DNA of 64,000 bases from an uncultured delta proteobacterium (lineage in GTDB: Bacteria > Desulfobacterota > Desulfomonilia > Desulfomonilales > Desulfomonilaceae): NCBI GenBank assembly GCA_963789265.1, contig CAWBKB010000007.1:460398-524397 (forward strand), in the 5' to 3' direction. A program made the position numbers. Below are positions 57,001-60,000 of the stretch, piece after piece (the first letter of the stretch is position 1; each line of letters opens with the position of its first letter).

Positions 57001-60000
57001 GTGCTCAGAGCCTCGGAGGCAAAAGAAGGCATCGTTACCCATCCCGCGGTGCTTAGTGCCGTAGTGGAAAAGGTCGAAGAAATGAGCCCCGCATCCATTG
57101 TTGTGGGGGACAACCCGGGGCTTTTCAACTATGGGGCGAATGAAGAAAGCTTCAAAACAGCAGGTCTGATGGAAGCAGCCAAGGGCTATTACCGCAACAT
57201 CGGTAACGATTCACGGAAAATTGATTTCAATGCCGATTTCATGCCCACTGTGAGCATCTCGCGAATTGTCTTGGACGCGGATATTATTATCAGCTTGCCG
57301 AAATTCAAAACACACGGTTTGACTGTCATCACTGGAGCCATCAAAAACAGTTACGGTATTCTGCCCGGCGCACAGAAGGCTAAGCTTCACAAGGCCGCGG
57401 GATGCGCGGAGCGTTTCCATGAAATGTTGGTGGATATCTTCCGGCTCCGGCCGCCCAACCTGTTCATAATGGATGCTGTGGTCGGAATGGAGGGGAATGG
57501 TCCCGCCTCCCCTGATCTGCGAGATATCGGCCTTATGTTGGCATCGGACAACGCTGTGGCTTTGGATGCTGTCGTTGCCAGGATGATGGGATGCGAACCG
57601 GGGCGGCTGCGATTCCTTCAGAAGGCCAAAGAAGTCGGTTTGGGGGACTATGACATCGGTGCGATTGAGATCTTTGGAGAATTGAAACAACTGCCCGACT
57701 TCAAGCTTCCCCCCTTGGGCGGCGAAGCGGTCATGAGTAACGAGGCCATACAGAAGATCATGCACAGTCGAACGACTGTGCGTCCCCAGGCTGACCCGGA
57801 ATCGTGCACCGGCTGCGGTACTTGCATCGACCAGTGTCCGATGTCAGCCTTGACCATGAGCGGCGATCTGCCGCAAGTCGACGCAGATACTTGTATTACT
57901 TGCTTTTGCTGTCAGGAAGTCTGTCCTGAGAAAGCAATGACCCTACGGTAGGGCCAAGAAATAGCCGTTCGTGCAGAAGAAGGATTACCGATTTGAACTG
58001 TGGCCGGCACGGAGGCCGGCCCTACCGACCAATAGGGCCGGCCTCCGTGCCGGCCATTAAGTGAACCCTCATAGGAAAAGATCCAATCGCCATTAGGGCG
58101 ATTGGATCATGAGGGGAGGAGATCGGCCTGCCGAACCAGCCGGCAGTCCCTAGGTTTTCAAAGGCTACTCGAACCTTATGAGTGAAAATCAACTCGTGCT
58201 CTTTCAATTCATGGTTGTCAGCTCTCAGGAGGGCTCGTAAACTCCTGCCGCGTTTCCGCCTTTTAAAAAGCTAAATCCACCGTCAGACCAAGAGCCCAAT
58301 AGGATTGGTCGAGTTGGGCATTATCAGTTGAACCACTACCGGGAATGCCGCCGAAAATGTCTGTATGGGGAATGGTCTGATCACCGGTCCCCTGGTCAAT
58401 GCTCGCGTATATATTCCCATTGCCATCAAAACTCAGCCATTCTCCTCTGCCCCAAAAACCCATGCTAAGGCTCTGAGTAATGGGCGTTGAGGTCTCCAAT
58501 TCACCCAGGAGGAACCGGCCGTTACTGTCGTCCATTGTGTATTTAGTCTGGCTGATCTCACGCAGACCGGTTGTCGCGCCAATACAAAGGATGTCGAACG
58601 GATCCTGGAAATGATTCCACGCAAAAGGGCTGCCGATCAAGCGCAATTGGTATGTCGAACACTTTTCACAGCATGGAGGGGCACACTGAGGCGTGCCGCA
58701 CTGTTGTGGAGGACACTGGTCCCCACCGCATTTCTTTGAATTACAACCGCATCTTCCAGTGAGACGAAATCCAAAGTAAGGTATATACGATGTTTCCAGC
58801 GGGTCCTGAATTAATCCGGCGAACTCGCCGAAGTTGACTCCGCTCGGTCACACGCGGTGGCATGTTATCGCAGCTCCCGGTGGCCGTCCGGTAGCTGTGT
58901 CCGCCTGGGTTGAGTTTCGAGGATCCACAAGCTTGAAATCTATGTGCTCCACCATGAATCCGGCTTCCAGCGACCAATTGCTGGTGAGTCTATAGTCAAT
59001 GCCCGAGTCTATCATCCACCACTGGAAATTGTGGCTTGACCATATCCAAGGCGAAACTGTATTAGGCGGATTGTCGAGAAGAGGATTAGACGGGTTCGAA
59101 GGGAGAAACACCTTTCCCGTAGCATTCATCATCCAGGTATTGTCCCGTTGAATATTGCCGCCCAATTCTGTGTATAGAATTAGATCTCTAACGGGTTGAA
59201 TCTTTACGCCGGTGAATCCTACCCAGTATTGGCCGTCCAGAAGCTTGAGGTCCATGGCTTCGACGTTAAGCGCGTTAGTGACCCTGTCGATTACCTGGAC
59301 ACCCGGAACCAGCGAGAAAGGAAAACTGAATTCCCACTCCATCCACATGTAGCCGGCTCTGGCGTACGGCTTGATTGTCCACACCTCGTCCGCGTAGTAC
59401 GGGCCGGACGAACCGGCCCCGAGACCCGGCATCGGGGACAAAACACCTCCTCCGGGTGGCGAGGCCGGAAAAATCGGAGTGGGCGCACCCTGAGGCAACG
59501 CCACCGCCGGCAGCAATGCCATGAAAAGGGCGGCCAAGATCAATAGAAGTCTTTTCATAATTGAGCCTCCTTGAGAATTTCGGAAAGAGGTCTGAGCAGC
59601 CAACTGACAACTGCGATTCTACTCATCGTTAGTAGTCTATCAAAAAAAGACCCTGATGTCAAGCTATTAATTCGAATCTATTATAATTTAGATTATGTTT
59701 TATTCATAAAATATATTATGATATAAGCACATACCATTAATATTGAAGATTATATATTAAGATAATGGAGTTCGTGCCGTTTGCGGTAACGAATCCGCCG
59801 CCTCGTGCCTAACCGATGCGGGGCAGGACGATGGCAATAGTCATTGGGAAAGAGTTTACAAGGGCAGACCTGCAGAAACTGTCTCAAAGCGATTATGATG
59901 GCAATTGCTTGTCCCGGTAATTCTGTGTTCCGCGCGGAAGGCGCGACTGCCTGTCCCGCGTTCCGCGGGATCACCTTGGAACCCGATGCGAGGGTAGGTC

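Follow-up and report, generated by a model that had tools for sequence, protein, structure and literature searches.

A candidate selenoprotein family of predicted outer-membrane beta-barrels in Desulfomonilaceae-type genomes

The probable selenoprotein gene and its surroundings

The window, as the whole stretch of DNA analysed is called here, comprises 64,000 nucleotides from the genome of an uncultured delta proteobacterium of the family Desulfomonilaceae. Its minus strand carries, at positions 58263..59558, a gene of 431 codons followed by a TAA stop and containing one in-frame TGA as codon 237 (58848..58850, equal to C7:519245-519247 of the contig), set in the motif A-I-T-C-x-R-[IV]-U-x-G-G. 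Translation of this interval with TGA read as selenocysteine (Sec, U) yields 431 residues, in which U237 is the single step that departs from translation table 11, and homologues align end to end across the TGA. This agrees with the survey's finding of one 431-codon minus-strand gene joined by the in-frame TGA. Under table 11 the same region is read as two ORFs, 58848..59603 and 58263..58646, the latter of 127 amino acids.

Several features can be assigned along the product, all of them encoded on the minus strand. The first 20 residues (59499..59558) form a putative signal peptide; the hydrophobic segment beginning MKRLLLILAALFMALLPAVA... was read directly from the sequence, cleavage may occur after A-V-A, and the AlphaFold2 (AF2) model places a helix at residues 2-19, followed by a disordered Pro-rich linker (17-54). 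The predicted beta-barrel domain extends from residue 58 to the C-terminal Phe at 431 (58266..59387), with strand blocks at pLDDT 85-95 and a fold match to OmpT. Residues 215-253 (58800..58916) lie between strands 5 and 6 in a loop that carries C233, R235 and U237 and has low pLDDT and no strand in the AF2 model. A Cys-rich turn, delimited by alignment and AF2, follows strand 6 at residues 270-301 (58656..58751). The signal-like segment, the Cys-rich stretch (residues 270-300) and the C-terminal ..LAF named in the survey are all present in the sequence. Upstream of the gene, a Shine-Dalgarno-like AAGGAGG was read 7 nt before the ATG (59566..59572), and a TG-extended sigma-70-like promoter match, TTGACA-17-TAGACT (10/12), lies at 59634..59662; it is a consensus match only, one of 5 found in the region where 2.1 are expected. 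Among the RNA sequencing runs listed, none contains the gene; one DNA run, probably of the source sample, has 73% of its sequence words.

The upstream neighbour (60385..61518, minus strand) encodes a Wza-like polysaccharide export protein with Poly_export and SLBB domains, in line with the survey's placing of such a gene beside the Sec gene, and a Wza-like gene lies near the Sec gene in 5 genera. Further upstream, 61519..62793 (minus strand) encodes a signal-peptide protein ending in ..LEAAF that has no Pfam match; this product is likely a second barrel of the export locus, and the true start of its ORF is probably internal. In 5 genera (g1, g25, g26, g24 and g5) a trio of PCP-like, second barrel-like and Wza-like genes, in varying orientation, lies no more than about 4 kb from the Sec gene; a polysaccharide deacetylase, a Wzy_C-like protein and a UDP-GlcNAc 2-epimerase are also encoded nearby, and a conserved protein of 459-479 amino acids is found directly downstream of the Sec gene in 4 genera. 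Five or more further genera or loci (L053-L057, L062 and L064) have no export genes within 8 kb, and no metal-handling genes were found in the 26 neighbourhoods examined. A polysaccharide export and modification neighbourhood does not itself point to redox chemistry.

Conservation of the in-frame TGA and its decoding

A search of 70 genomes of the family recovered in-frame-TGA matches in 25 genomes from 10 of 26 genera, so the relatives reported by the survey are real and their number is larger than its 17 genomes. A Sec form is present, among others, in G045, a genome of the family that looks complete. In an alignment of 23 loci, the TGA is kept at the same column in 22, which represent 10 genera, and the 23rd (L021) has TGT. 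This alignment leaves aside the frameshifted L016 (genome G027), L032 (G040) with its several stops, the fragmentary or distant L034-L038, the second of the tandem copies in G068 and G069, and a copy on contig C13 of G048. The last of these bears R-I-U-P-G-G. Identity among the TGA-bearing homologues is about 31-86% by BLASTP and 35-86% in the protein alignment (A1). No other stops occur in the 22 TGA loci, both flanks of the TGA are conserved, and the 25 invariant alignment columns are spread across its two sides. In-frame conservation extends through the 67 codons that separate the TGA from the first possible start of the downstream ORF, and G248, D252, P253, P260, G263 and R265, all located in this interval, are invariant.

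Within the motif, the survey had described C233, R235, U237, P238 and G240 as invariant. Invariance holds for I231, R235 and the Sec column across the 22 sequences aligned, and G239/G240 are at least 90% conserved, but C233 is Ser in two of the Sec forms (and Ala, Pro or Gly in Cys forms), and position 238 may be P, L, V, I, T, A or R. Cysteine occupies the Sec column in L021 and in four public-database relatives (P0003, P0004, P0008 and P0009). L021 is the stop-free homologue for which the survey gave no alignment; its Cys aligns to the TGA column, an outcome that favours the Sec reading. In the phylogenetic tree, from which the partial sequences L014, L031 and L033 were omitted, Cys forms appear at two separate places, one being a CPxC clade and the other P0003 and P0004, which are nested beside a Sec form.

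Public gene calls break precisely at the TGA site. In a profile search of 1.84 billion representative sequences, the 150 matches listed include 15 fragments ending at profile position 235 and 7 short proteins starting at positions 244-248, and the five database fragments inspected all end in ...R-I.

A hairpin lies at a fixed distance past the UGA in about 19-20 of the 22 Sec genes, with a loop of the form AG[G/U]U. In the window it reads UUCGGCG-AGUU-CGCCGGA (58815..58832, minus strand), with its stem starting 15 nt and its loop 22 nt past the UGA. Hairpins were picked and their pairs counted with a loop-anchored script, which found AGUU, AGGU or AGGGU loops in 19 of the 22 genes; it mis-picked L023, L025 and L031, of which L031 has such a loop on inspection, and the canonical hairpin was not seen in L023 and L025 by automatic picking. 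Twelve sequences have 16 nt between UGA and loop and seven have 22 nt; a MAFFT alignment of the hairpin region (A2) misaligned the hairpins of the window's genus, which are displaced by 6 nt. Compensatory stem changes are found between genera, such as G-C/C-G in the first pair and C-G/U-A in the second, and one clade possesses a wholly different stem (CCAUC/GAUGG). The core hairpins range from -7.0 to -11.6 kcal/mol, with one clade reaching only -7.0. Such a hairpin is absent from the Cys form L021. Published bSECIS elements have a loop of 3-9 nt, an upper stem of 4-16 bp, a G in the first two loop positions, 16-37 nt between UGA and loop, and a minimum free energy of -7.5 kcal/mol or lower (PMC13188914, Fig. 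2 legend), and the hairpin of the window, with its AGUU loop, 7-bp stem, 22-nt distance and -10.5 kcal/mol, lies within all of these bounds.

The stability of the hairpin is modest, as the survey had remarked. Against synonymous-codon resamplings the window hairpin has a z of -0.71, with 24% of resamples equally stable; over the 22 Sec genes z runs from +0.71 to -2.85, and the 5% level is reached by only 9. A dinucleotide shuffle of 81 nt gives z -2.07. A scan of window positions 58600-59000 against Rfam at E<=10 returned no SECIS family and two chance-level matches, to a miRNA and an sRNA. The conserved placement, the compensatory changes and the agreement with the bSECIS description nevertheless favour the Sec reading.

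The genome also contains the machinery for selenocysteine insertion. A tRNA-Sec with anticodon UCA scores 71 bits in Rfam and is the sole UCA tRNA among 48, typed SeC by ARAGORN; its discriminator base is G, which marks Ser/Sec identity rather than Cys identity. A second above-cut-off Rfam match to tRNA-Sec (C5:11973) proved to be tRNA-Leu(UAA) by ARAGORN. SelA is found at 507 bits, the selB wing domain at 50 bits, and selD at 360 bits with an in-frame TGA of its own. Because the TGA is conserved, Cys homologues exist, a hairpin follows, gene calls break at this site and the Sec machinery is present, codon 237 is almost certainly read as selenocysteine.

Two other readings of the codon were weighed. 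Read-through of UGA as cysteine or another residue, for instance by a tRNA-Cys of the selC* type whose anticodon is UCA, is very improbable: the only UCA tRNA detected is of the SeC type (in a genome 95.6% complete, from which a second one could be missing), its discriminator is G, and selA and a Sec-containing selD accompany it, even though Cys does occupy the site in natural homologues. Such a tRNA-Cys with an opal anticodon has been described in some delta-proteobacteria including Desulfomonile tiedjei, whose selC* tRNA-Cys was prepared for assays (PMC5389517), and this gives the reading a precedent. That the TGA is a real stop, separating a 236-aa secreted protein from a 127-aa protein or marking a decaying pseudogene, is scarcely credible, although table 11 yields two ORFs, public gene callers make such fragments and a congener copy in G027, next to an IS110 transposase, is split over four frames, because decay would not keep a single stop at one column in 22 loci of 10 genera that are otherwise free of stops and share 31-86% identity, and the in-frame conservation past the TGA, the Cys at the site in five homologues, the inability of either half-protein to close a barrel and the SECIS-type hairpin 3' of the UGA all speak against it.

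Predicted barrel fold and co-varying cysteines

The AF2 model built from 22 sequences has a pLDDT of 74.1 and a pTM of 0.71 and forms a long barrel of 10 long strands. The survey's fold had been of low confidence; with these sequences pLDDT rises to 74, which favours a barrel, and the long-stranded outer-membrane barrel after an N-terminal helix is retained, with about 10 strands in place of the 16 then counted. Foldseek matches the model to OmpT and Pla at E 1.5e-11 to 2.9e-9 and TM(target) 0.62-0.70 (0.68 for 1i78). VIA-align places pOmpT (7xw0) at Z 22.6, with 252/265 residues at an rmsd of 4.0, followed by OpcA (Z 17.4), the Dot/Icm porin I (Z 16.4) and the copper transporter PcoB (Z 10.8); every one of the top fold matches is an outer-membrane barrel. 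At the C-terminus, 20 of the 23 aligned loci encode F, 2 encode Y and 1 encodes I. From the signal peptide, the closed antiparallel barrel and the C-terminal aromatic residue, the product is predicted to be a secreted outer-membrane barrel. Protein language-model neighbours of the Cys form P0008, taken as a lead only, are Pom and omptin-type outer-membrane clusters; a search of this genome for the Pom family (PF17251), at which these protein-atlas neighbours hint, gave no match at E<=1.

Within the model, pLDDT falls below 50 at residues 218-250, in the Sec loop, and at residues 273-296, in the Cys-rich turn. From the one-to-one match to the 10-stranded OmpT and the usual topology rules, the Sec loop between strands 5 and 6 would correspond to extracellular loop L3 and the Cys-rich turn after strand 6 to periplasmic turn T3. 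The closeness of U237, C233 and C325 is likewise proposed from topology rules, not from measured distances.

The cysteines of the family vary together with the Sec site. C325 and at least two Cys in the turn after strand 6 are kept in all 22 Sec forms, and C233 in 20 of them; a CC/CxC cluster is among the co-varying cysteines. The turn is long in the window's genus and is represented elsewhere by a short cluster of 2-4 Cys. Three CPxC Cys forms lack both C233 and C325 and have a Cys at +3 instead, and P0015, with Leu at the Sec site, has lost C233, C325 and the turn cysteines altogether. The Cys forms carry CPGC or CPTC at the site, the classic dithiol/disulfide spacing.

Proposed function and relation to known barrels

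Taken as a whole, it is considered quite probable that the locus holds one selenoprotein gene with a SECIS-directed Sec237 and a secreted outer-membrane barrel of about 10 strands as its product. SelB and tRNA-Sec would recode UGA 237, recruited by the hairpin with its 7-bp stem and AGUU loop 22 nt downstream. The product would be exported by its N-terminal signal peptide and inserted as a long barrel with the overall shape of OmpT and OpcA. The barrel appears to belong to a lineage-specific family with non-Sec paralogues in the same genomes, within which the Sec subfamily would have gained, between strands 5 and 6, the loop of about 40 residues bearing C-x-R-[IV]-U. Standard barrel topology would place this loop at the cell-surface end, with Cys325 atop strand 7 beside it and the Cys cluster in the turn at the opposite end of strand 6. 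The likeliest mechanism can be proposed only tentatively: Sec237 may be a surface selenolate that cycles through a selenenylsulfide with Cys233 or Cys325, as a redox or chalcogen-transfer centre that acts on a substrate outside the cell or in its envelope, in habitats that are sulfidic and anoxic.

Two alternatives accept the selenoprotein and differ in its use. In the first, which is doubtful, the Sec/Cys cluster would be a soft-metal or metalloid site (for Hg, Cu, As or Se species) serving capture, uptake or detoxification and not a redox catalyst. The co-varying cysteines with their CC/CxC cluster would suit metal ligation and PcoB is among the fold matches, but the 26 neighbourhoods hold no metal-handling genes and the CPGC/CPTC of the Cys forms has a dithiol/disulfide spacing. 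Several of the catalogued selenoproteins are metal-binding (PMC13188914, Table 1), which also lends this alternative some support. In the second, which is rather unlikely, the barrel would be an accessory of polysaccharide export, anchoring or modifying exopolysaccharide at the cell surface, with Sec and Cys mainly as structural (seleno)disulfide cross-links. The export trio in 5 genera, the deacetylase, Wzy_C-like and epimerase genes and the conserved downstream protein all agree with such a role. Against it stand the loci where export genes are missing within 8 kb, the cost of Sec, which is rarely used for purely structural bonds, and the width of a 10-stranded barrel, which would be too narrow for a polymer channel.

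An extension of the redox or chalcogen-transfer proposal, improbable as it is, would make the barrel a trans-outer-membrane chalcogen relay, in which the surface U237/C233/C325 and the periplasmic Cys cluster lie at the two ends of strand 6 and are gained or lost together; the Sec loop would dip into the lumen and pass reducing equivalents, sulfane sulfur or selenium between the outside and the periplasm. Such a relay would be an outer-membrane counterpart of the thiol relays of the inner membrane and could be a missing sulfur or selenium route across the outer membrane of sulfur-cycling anaerobes. The way in which sulfur species cross the outer membrane is described as unknown in a 2026 paper on MccSep, a periplasmic selenoenzyme that reduces polysulfide (PMC13510729). 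The Sec barrel family may be considered a speculative candidate for this step.

Judged against sequence collections, the family is undescribed, in agreement with the survey, which had found no Pfam or NCBIfam match. No Pfam family reaches better than E 0.07, and PF13557 is not among the Pfam families at E<=10; NCBIfam (release 20) returns no family at E<=10 for P0001 and P0003, and a profile search with alignment A1 finds no PDB sequence at E<=10. Nor is the family listed in the consulted part of the 2026 catalogue of 119 selenoprotein families (PMC13188914). Among the samples searched, only Desulfomonilaceae-type genomes contain it, and a Wza-like polysaccharide export locus is often adjacent. 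Since gene callers cut every Sec member into two 'hypothetical proteins', the family is invisible in annotation and missing from selenoproteome counts of such genomes. Its placement would put Sec on the cell surface of a strict anaerobe, as opposed to the usual cytoplasmic or periplasmic oxidoreductase, and its naturally occurring forms with Sec, with Cys (single or as CPxC) or with all of these cysteines lost offer a comparison series for a surface selenol.

Outer-membrane selenoproteins already catalogued include an MtrB/PioB-type barrel and a TonB-dependent receptor (PMC13188914), and the present family would be a third, unrelated architecture among the few on record. The first of these, GSU2204 / MtrB-PioB (NF041027, PF11854), appears in Table 1 of PMC13188914 and in PMC9312934. 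It is likewise a beta-barrel selenoprotein of the former Deltaproteobacteria, and both were predicted computationally; its family model is unmatched here, with PF11854 at 9.9 bits (E 0.32), where the cut-off is 23, and no NCBIfam match at E<=10. The MtrB type is much larger; the Sec barrel protein lacks the CXXCH motif by which that family is recognised and has a model of about 10 strands. The TonB-dependent receptor of the FCYXU type (NF049945) is also an outer-membrane barrel with a Cys near its Sec (CxxU, compared with CxxxU here), but it has no NCBIfam match to the Sec barrel, which has 431 residues, no plug domain and fold matches to omptin and OpcA instead. The omptins (OmpT and Pla; PF01278) share only 9-11% sequence identity with the Sec barrel, give no Pfam Omptin match at E<=10, and reach an hhalign probability of 0.12 when the family profile is compared with the PF01278-positive protein of this same genome. 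They have no Sec or Cys centre, and the Asp-Asp and Asp-His pairs responsible for their catalysis sit at the outer rim; in structure they are the best match, a long 10-stranded barrel that aligns with the Sec barrel from end to end.

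A probable selenoprotein gene and its homologues

The barrel gene at 58263-59558 on the minus strand very probably represents a real, undescribed selenoprotein family. It comprises 431 codons and a TAA when the TGA at codon 237 (58848-58850, minus strand), the sole non-standard step in the frame, is read through. Under translation table 11 the frame breaks into ORFs 58848..59603 and 58263..58646. These match the two separately called genes, which, as the survey's finding proposed, are halves of one TGA-interrupted frame. The sequence AAGGAGG lies 7 nt upstream of the ATG, a sigma-70-like TTGACA-17-TAGACT (consensus match only) is found upstream at 59662-59634 on the minus strand, and a gap of 826 nt separates the gene from the upstream Wza-like gene; independent transcription of the gene is therefore possible.

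When 70 genomes of the window's GTDB family were searched in six frames, 25 of them, belonging to 10 of 26 genera, had a match that carries an in-frame TGA. One full or near-full copy per locus was aligned, giving 23 loci, 22 with TGA in the site column and one (L021, from genome G048) with TGT (Cys) in its place. By BLASTP the homologues are from 86% down to about 31% identical to the window protein, and in the 22-sequence protein alignment (A1) from 35 to 86%. Conservation among the aligned homologues is uninterrupted across the TGA, and G248, D252, P253, P260, G263 and R265, whose codons come after the TGA but before any start codon of the downstream ORF, are invariant. Four proteins in public databases carry Cys at the site, P0003 and P0004 as ..R-M-C-P-E.., P0008 as ..R-I-C-P-G-C.. 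and P0009 as ..R-L-C-P-T-C... Among the best 150 matches of a profile search of 1.84 billion representatives, 15 proteins stop at profile position 235 and 7 short proteins begin at position 244-248; all five N-terminal fragments inspected terminate in ...R-I. Fragmented public gene calls of this kind are what a split selenoprotein typically leaves.

Eleven related loci are labelled Desulfomonilaceae, 'uncultured delta proteobacterium', Thermodesulfobacteriota, Syntrophaceae and Syntrophales MAGs. Among 401 genomes sampled evenly across the phylum (E<=1e-20), the window's genome and 4 of 7 sampled genomes of its family matched, against none of 393 from other families, with up to four candidates scored per genome. 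Genome G048 has both barrel types, a Sec copy (C13:174820-175938, R-I-U-P-G-G) and a Cys copy (C46:176834-178042, R-I-C-P-G-C), which are natural paralogues for comparison. In G027, of the window's genus, the orthologue (L051:6064-7335 and L068) is in four frame-shifted pieces with the TGA still there and an IS110-family transposase about 2 kb off; this points to a pseudogene or else to an error of assembly.

The genome contains selA, selB and one tRNA-Sec (Rfam 71 bits; ARAGORN SeC, anticodon UCA, discriminator G). Its selD (G000:C7:193442-194362, minus strand; locus L070) is itself a selenoprotein gene: its frame contains a single TGA (..QASG-U-AAK..), with a 7-bp hairpin after it. A rival reading, that the UGA of the barrel gene is decoded as Cys, arises because D. 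tiedjei, a Sec user, also has a selC*-type tRNA-Cys according to the available text of PMC5389517. Among the 48 tRNAs of the present genome, tRNA-Sec is the only one with a UCA anticodon.

Sec insertion is also consistent with the RNA downstream of the UGA. The window hairpin, UUCGGCG-AGUU-CGCCGGA (-10.5 kcal/mol), starts 15 nt past the UGA and has its loop at 22 nt; the equivalent loop in other genera lies at 16 nt, the 6-nt difference corresponding to a two-residue insertion in the window's genus. The loops of the 22 Sec genes are AGUU (12), AGGU (5) and AGGGU (2), and three were mis-picked by the automatic script, of which L031 reads AUCGGAC-AGUU-GUCCGGU by inspection. Stems vary by clade with both sides changed (ACCGGUC/GGCCGGU, GUCGGCC/GGUCGGC, CCGGCC/GGCCGG and, in one clade, UCCAUC/GAUGGA). 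The bSECIS consensus given in the legend to Fig. 2 of PMC13188914 specifies a loop of 3-9 nt on a stem of 4-16 bp, with G within the first two positions of the loop, a spacing of 16-37 nt and MFE <= -7.5 kcal/mol. The barrel-gene hairpins fit this model, with the exception of one clade whose core hairpin reaches just -7.0 kcal/mol. No such hairpin was found after the site in L021, and no Rfam family matches the hairpin region. Against synonymous-codon resampling the excess of stability is modest, with z<0 in 21 of 22 Sec genes and the 5% level reached in 9 of 22 (window gene z -0.71; Cys form z +0.44). The hairpin codes for G-x-G-Q-[LV]-x-G, which is conserved across Sec forms and differs in Cys forms, so the RNA may shape the protein sequence there.

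Predicted fold and the larger barrel family

The protein is likely an omptin-shaped outer-membrane barrel. The AlphaFold2 model built on the 22-sequence alignment has a mean pLDDT of 74.1 and a pTM of 0.71, with strand blocks at 85-95. Confidence is low in the Pro-rich linker that follows the signal helix (17-54), in the Sec loop (218-250) and in a Cys-rich stretch (273-296). Foldseek matched it to OmpT and Pla (omptins) at E 1.5e-11 to 2.9e-9 and TM(target) 0.62-0.70. VIA-align against 48,161 chains gave pOmpT 7xw0 (Z 22.6, 252/265 residues, rmsd 4.0), OpcA (Z 17.4) and Legionella Dot/Icm porin I (Z 16.4). When DSSP segments are merged, an interpretive step that leans on the end-to-end match with a 10-stranded barrel, ten long strands result (61-79, 101-123, 126-147, 171-190, 195-214, 254-269, 302-326, 333-359, 364-388 and 407-429), and these replace the 16 strands previously assigned. 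Of 23 sequences, 20 end in Phe, two in Tyr and one in Ile. Language-model neighbours of the Cys form P0008 fall in Pom-type and omptin-type outer-membrane clusters, which is a lead only.

Sequence comparison with Pfam, NCBIfam and the PDB places the protein in no described family. The best Pfam hits of the window protein, DUF2490 (E 0.071) and MtrB_PioB (E 0.32), are not significant, and none of 26 relatives matches Pfam at E<=0.01. NCBIfam release 20 has zero matches at E<=10 to the window protein or the Cys form P0003, and the family profile matches no PDB sequence at E<=10. Membership of the omptins by sequence was rejected: identity is 9-11%, PF01278 does not match, and hhalign of the family profile with the genome's PF01278-positive protein (C5, 348 aa) gives a probability of 0.12.

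The profile also retrieves many full-length relatives of 320-410 aa (E 1e-35 to 1e-10) that lack the Sec loop and its cysteines and share motifs such as D-P-R-N and W-I-P-Y-x-G. Four of these profile relatives are non-Sec paralogues in the window's genome (G000:C1:2189718-2190692, C1:379838-381010, C1:1566309-1567469 and C1:1155671-1156948; 323-396 aa), all of which have a signal peptide and end in Phe, and they belong to an unannotated, lineage-specific outer-membrane protein family. In a maximum-likelihood tree the loop-bearing subfamily forms one clade (support 100/100) versus three loop-less outgroups. Within it the CPxC Cys forms (L021, P0008 and P0009) are a separate clade, P0003 and P0004 adjoin a Sec form, and P0015, with Leu at the site, adjoins Sec forms of genus g26; the tree omits three partial sequences, and the placement of several long branches in it is unsure.

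The predicted selenocysteine loop and its genomic setting

Both termini of outer-membrane barrels are periplasmic. If this holds for the present protein, loop 215-253 between strands 5 and 6, with C233, R235 and U237, would be extracellular loop 3, residue 325 would lie at the outer end of strand 7, and the stretch 270-301 after strand 6 would be a periplasmic turn. The Sec loop itself has a pLDDT below 50. All 22 Sec forms with U237 have C325, Gly at +3 and at least two Cys after strand 6, and 20 have C233 (Ser in two). The CPxC forms, with Cys at 237, have lost C233 and C325, have Cys at +3 and keep Cys after strand 6. P0003 and P0004, also with Cys at 237, have lost C233, carry the Cys of position 325 two residues later, have Ala at +3 and keep Cys after strand 6. 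P0015, with Leu at 237, has lost C233 and C325, has Ala at +3 and has no Cys after strand 6. This co-variation argues that Sec and the cysteines function as one unit. Judged from the sequences, a selenenylsulfide/disulfide centre would account for the pattern best, followed by a soft-metal site. A surface-facing Sec/Cys redox centre is put forward tentatively as the leading mechanism, and a metal site formed by the Sec/Cys cluster is regarded as doubtful.

Upstream in the window lie the Wza-like Poly_export/SLBB protein (60385..61518, minus strand), a second barrel-like protein and a coiled-coil protein that matches nothing in Pfam. The second barrel-like protein (61519-62793, minus strand) has a signal peptide, ends in ..SLEAAF and has no Pfam match; in five genera it is encoded immediately upstream of the Wza-like export gene, and it seems to be a small barrel protein that partners this exporter specifically. 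Its counterparts elsewhere (L043:3659-4585 and L048:2829-3728) end in ..SLEAAF or ..SLEGLF. In genera g1, g25, g26, g24 and g5 the trio is no more than about 4 kb from the Sec gene, in varying orientation; it was not found within 8 kb in the loci of g13, g11, g15 and g22. A polysaccharide deacetylase is a recurrent neighbour in four genera. Directly downstream of the Sec gene, also in four genera, is a cytoplasmic-looking protein of 459-479 aa (L053:6197-7615, L061:9639-11033, L063:6054-7451 and L065:5939-7318) with no Pfam match at 1e-5 and the motif ..TSGSTGSP..; its motifs presumably resemble those of adenylate-forming CapK/PaaK-type enzymes. Small secreted Cys/Pro-rich proteins (97-126 aa, ..APCCEPTPL..) occur near the gene in three genera (L055:3922-4302, L062:9374-9667 and L065:7661-8008); they resemble the barrel's own Cys/Pro-rich insert (..APPCCEKC..) in the window's genus. 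The genes around the Sec gene make its setting one of cell-envelope polysaccharide rather than of redox or metal handling. A structural or exopolysaccharide-linked role is considered unlikely.

Elsewhere in the window, a tetrapyrrole methylase gene (55332-56187, plus strand) seems to be divided between two overlapping ORFs, 55332-55793 and 55732-56187. Its orthologue in L041 is a single 284-aa ORF, which suggests a possible frameshift in the window gene.

Comparison with known selenoproteins

No description of the Sec barrel family was found in the accessible portions of the literature on outer-membrane or beta-barrel selenoproteins and on Desulfomonile selenocysteine. The available text of PMC13510729 describes a periplasmic polysulfide reductase with Sec in related bacteria and states that the route that sulfur species take through the outer membrane is unknown. 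Table 1 of the 2026 review PMC13188914, in the part available, gives 119 prokaryotic selenoprotein families or subfamilies with model identifiers; the comparison with it covers its families that have NCBIfam or Pfam models. Its outer-membrane entries are the GSU2204/MtrB-PioB-type barrel (NF041027), which also appears in the accessible text of PMC9312934, and an FCYXU-motif receptor of the TonB-dependent type (NF049945). The window protein differs from both, being matched by neither model nor by any other NCBIfam or Pfam model. Outer-membrane selenoproteins are thus already known to exist, and new bacterial selenoprotein families still turn up regularly.
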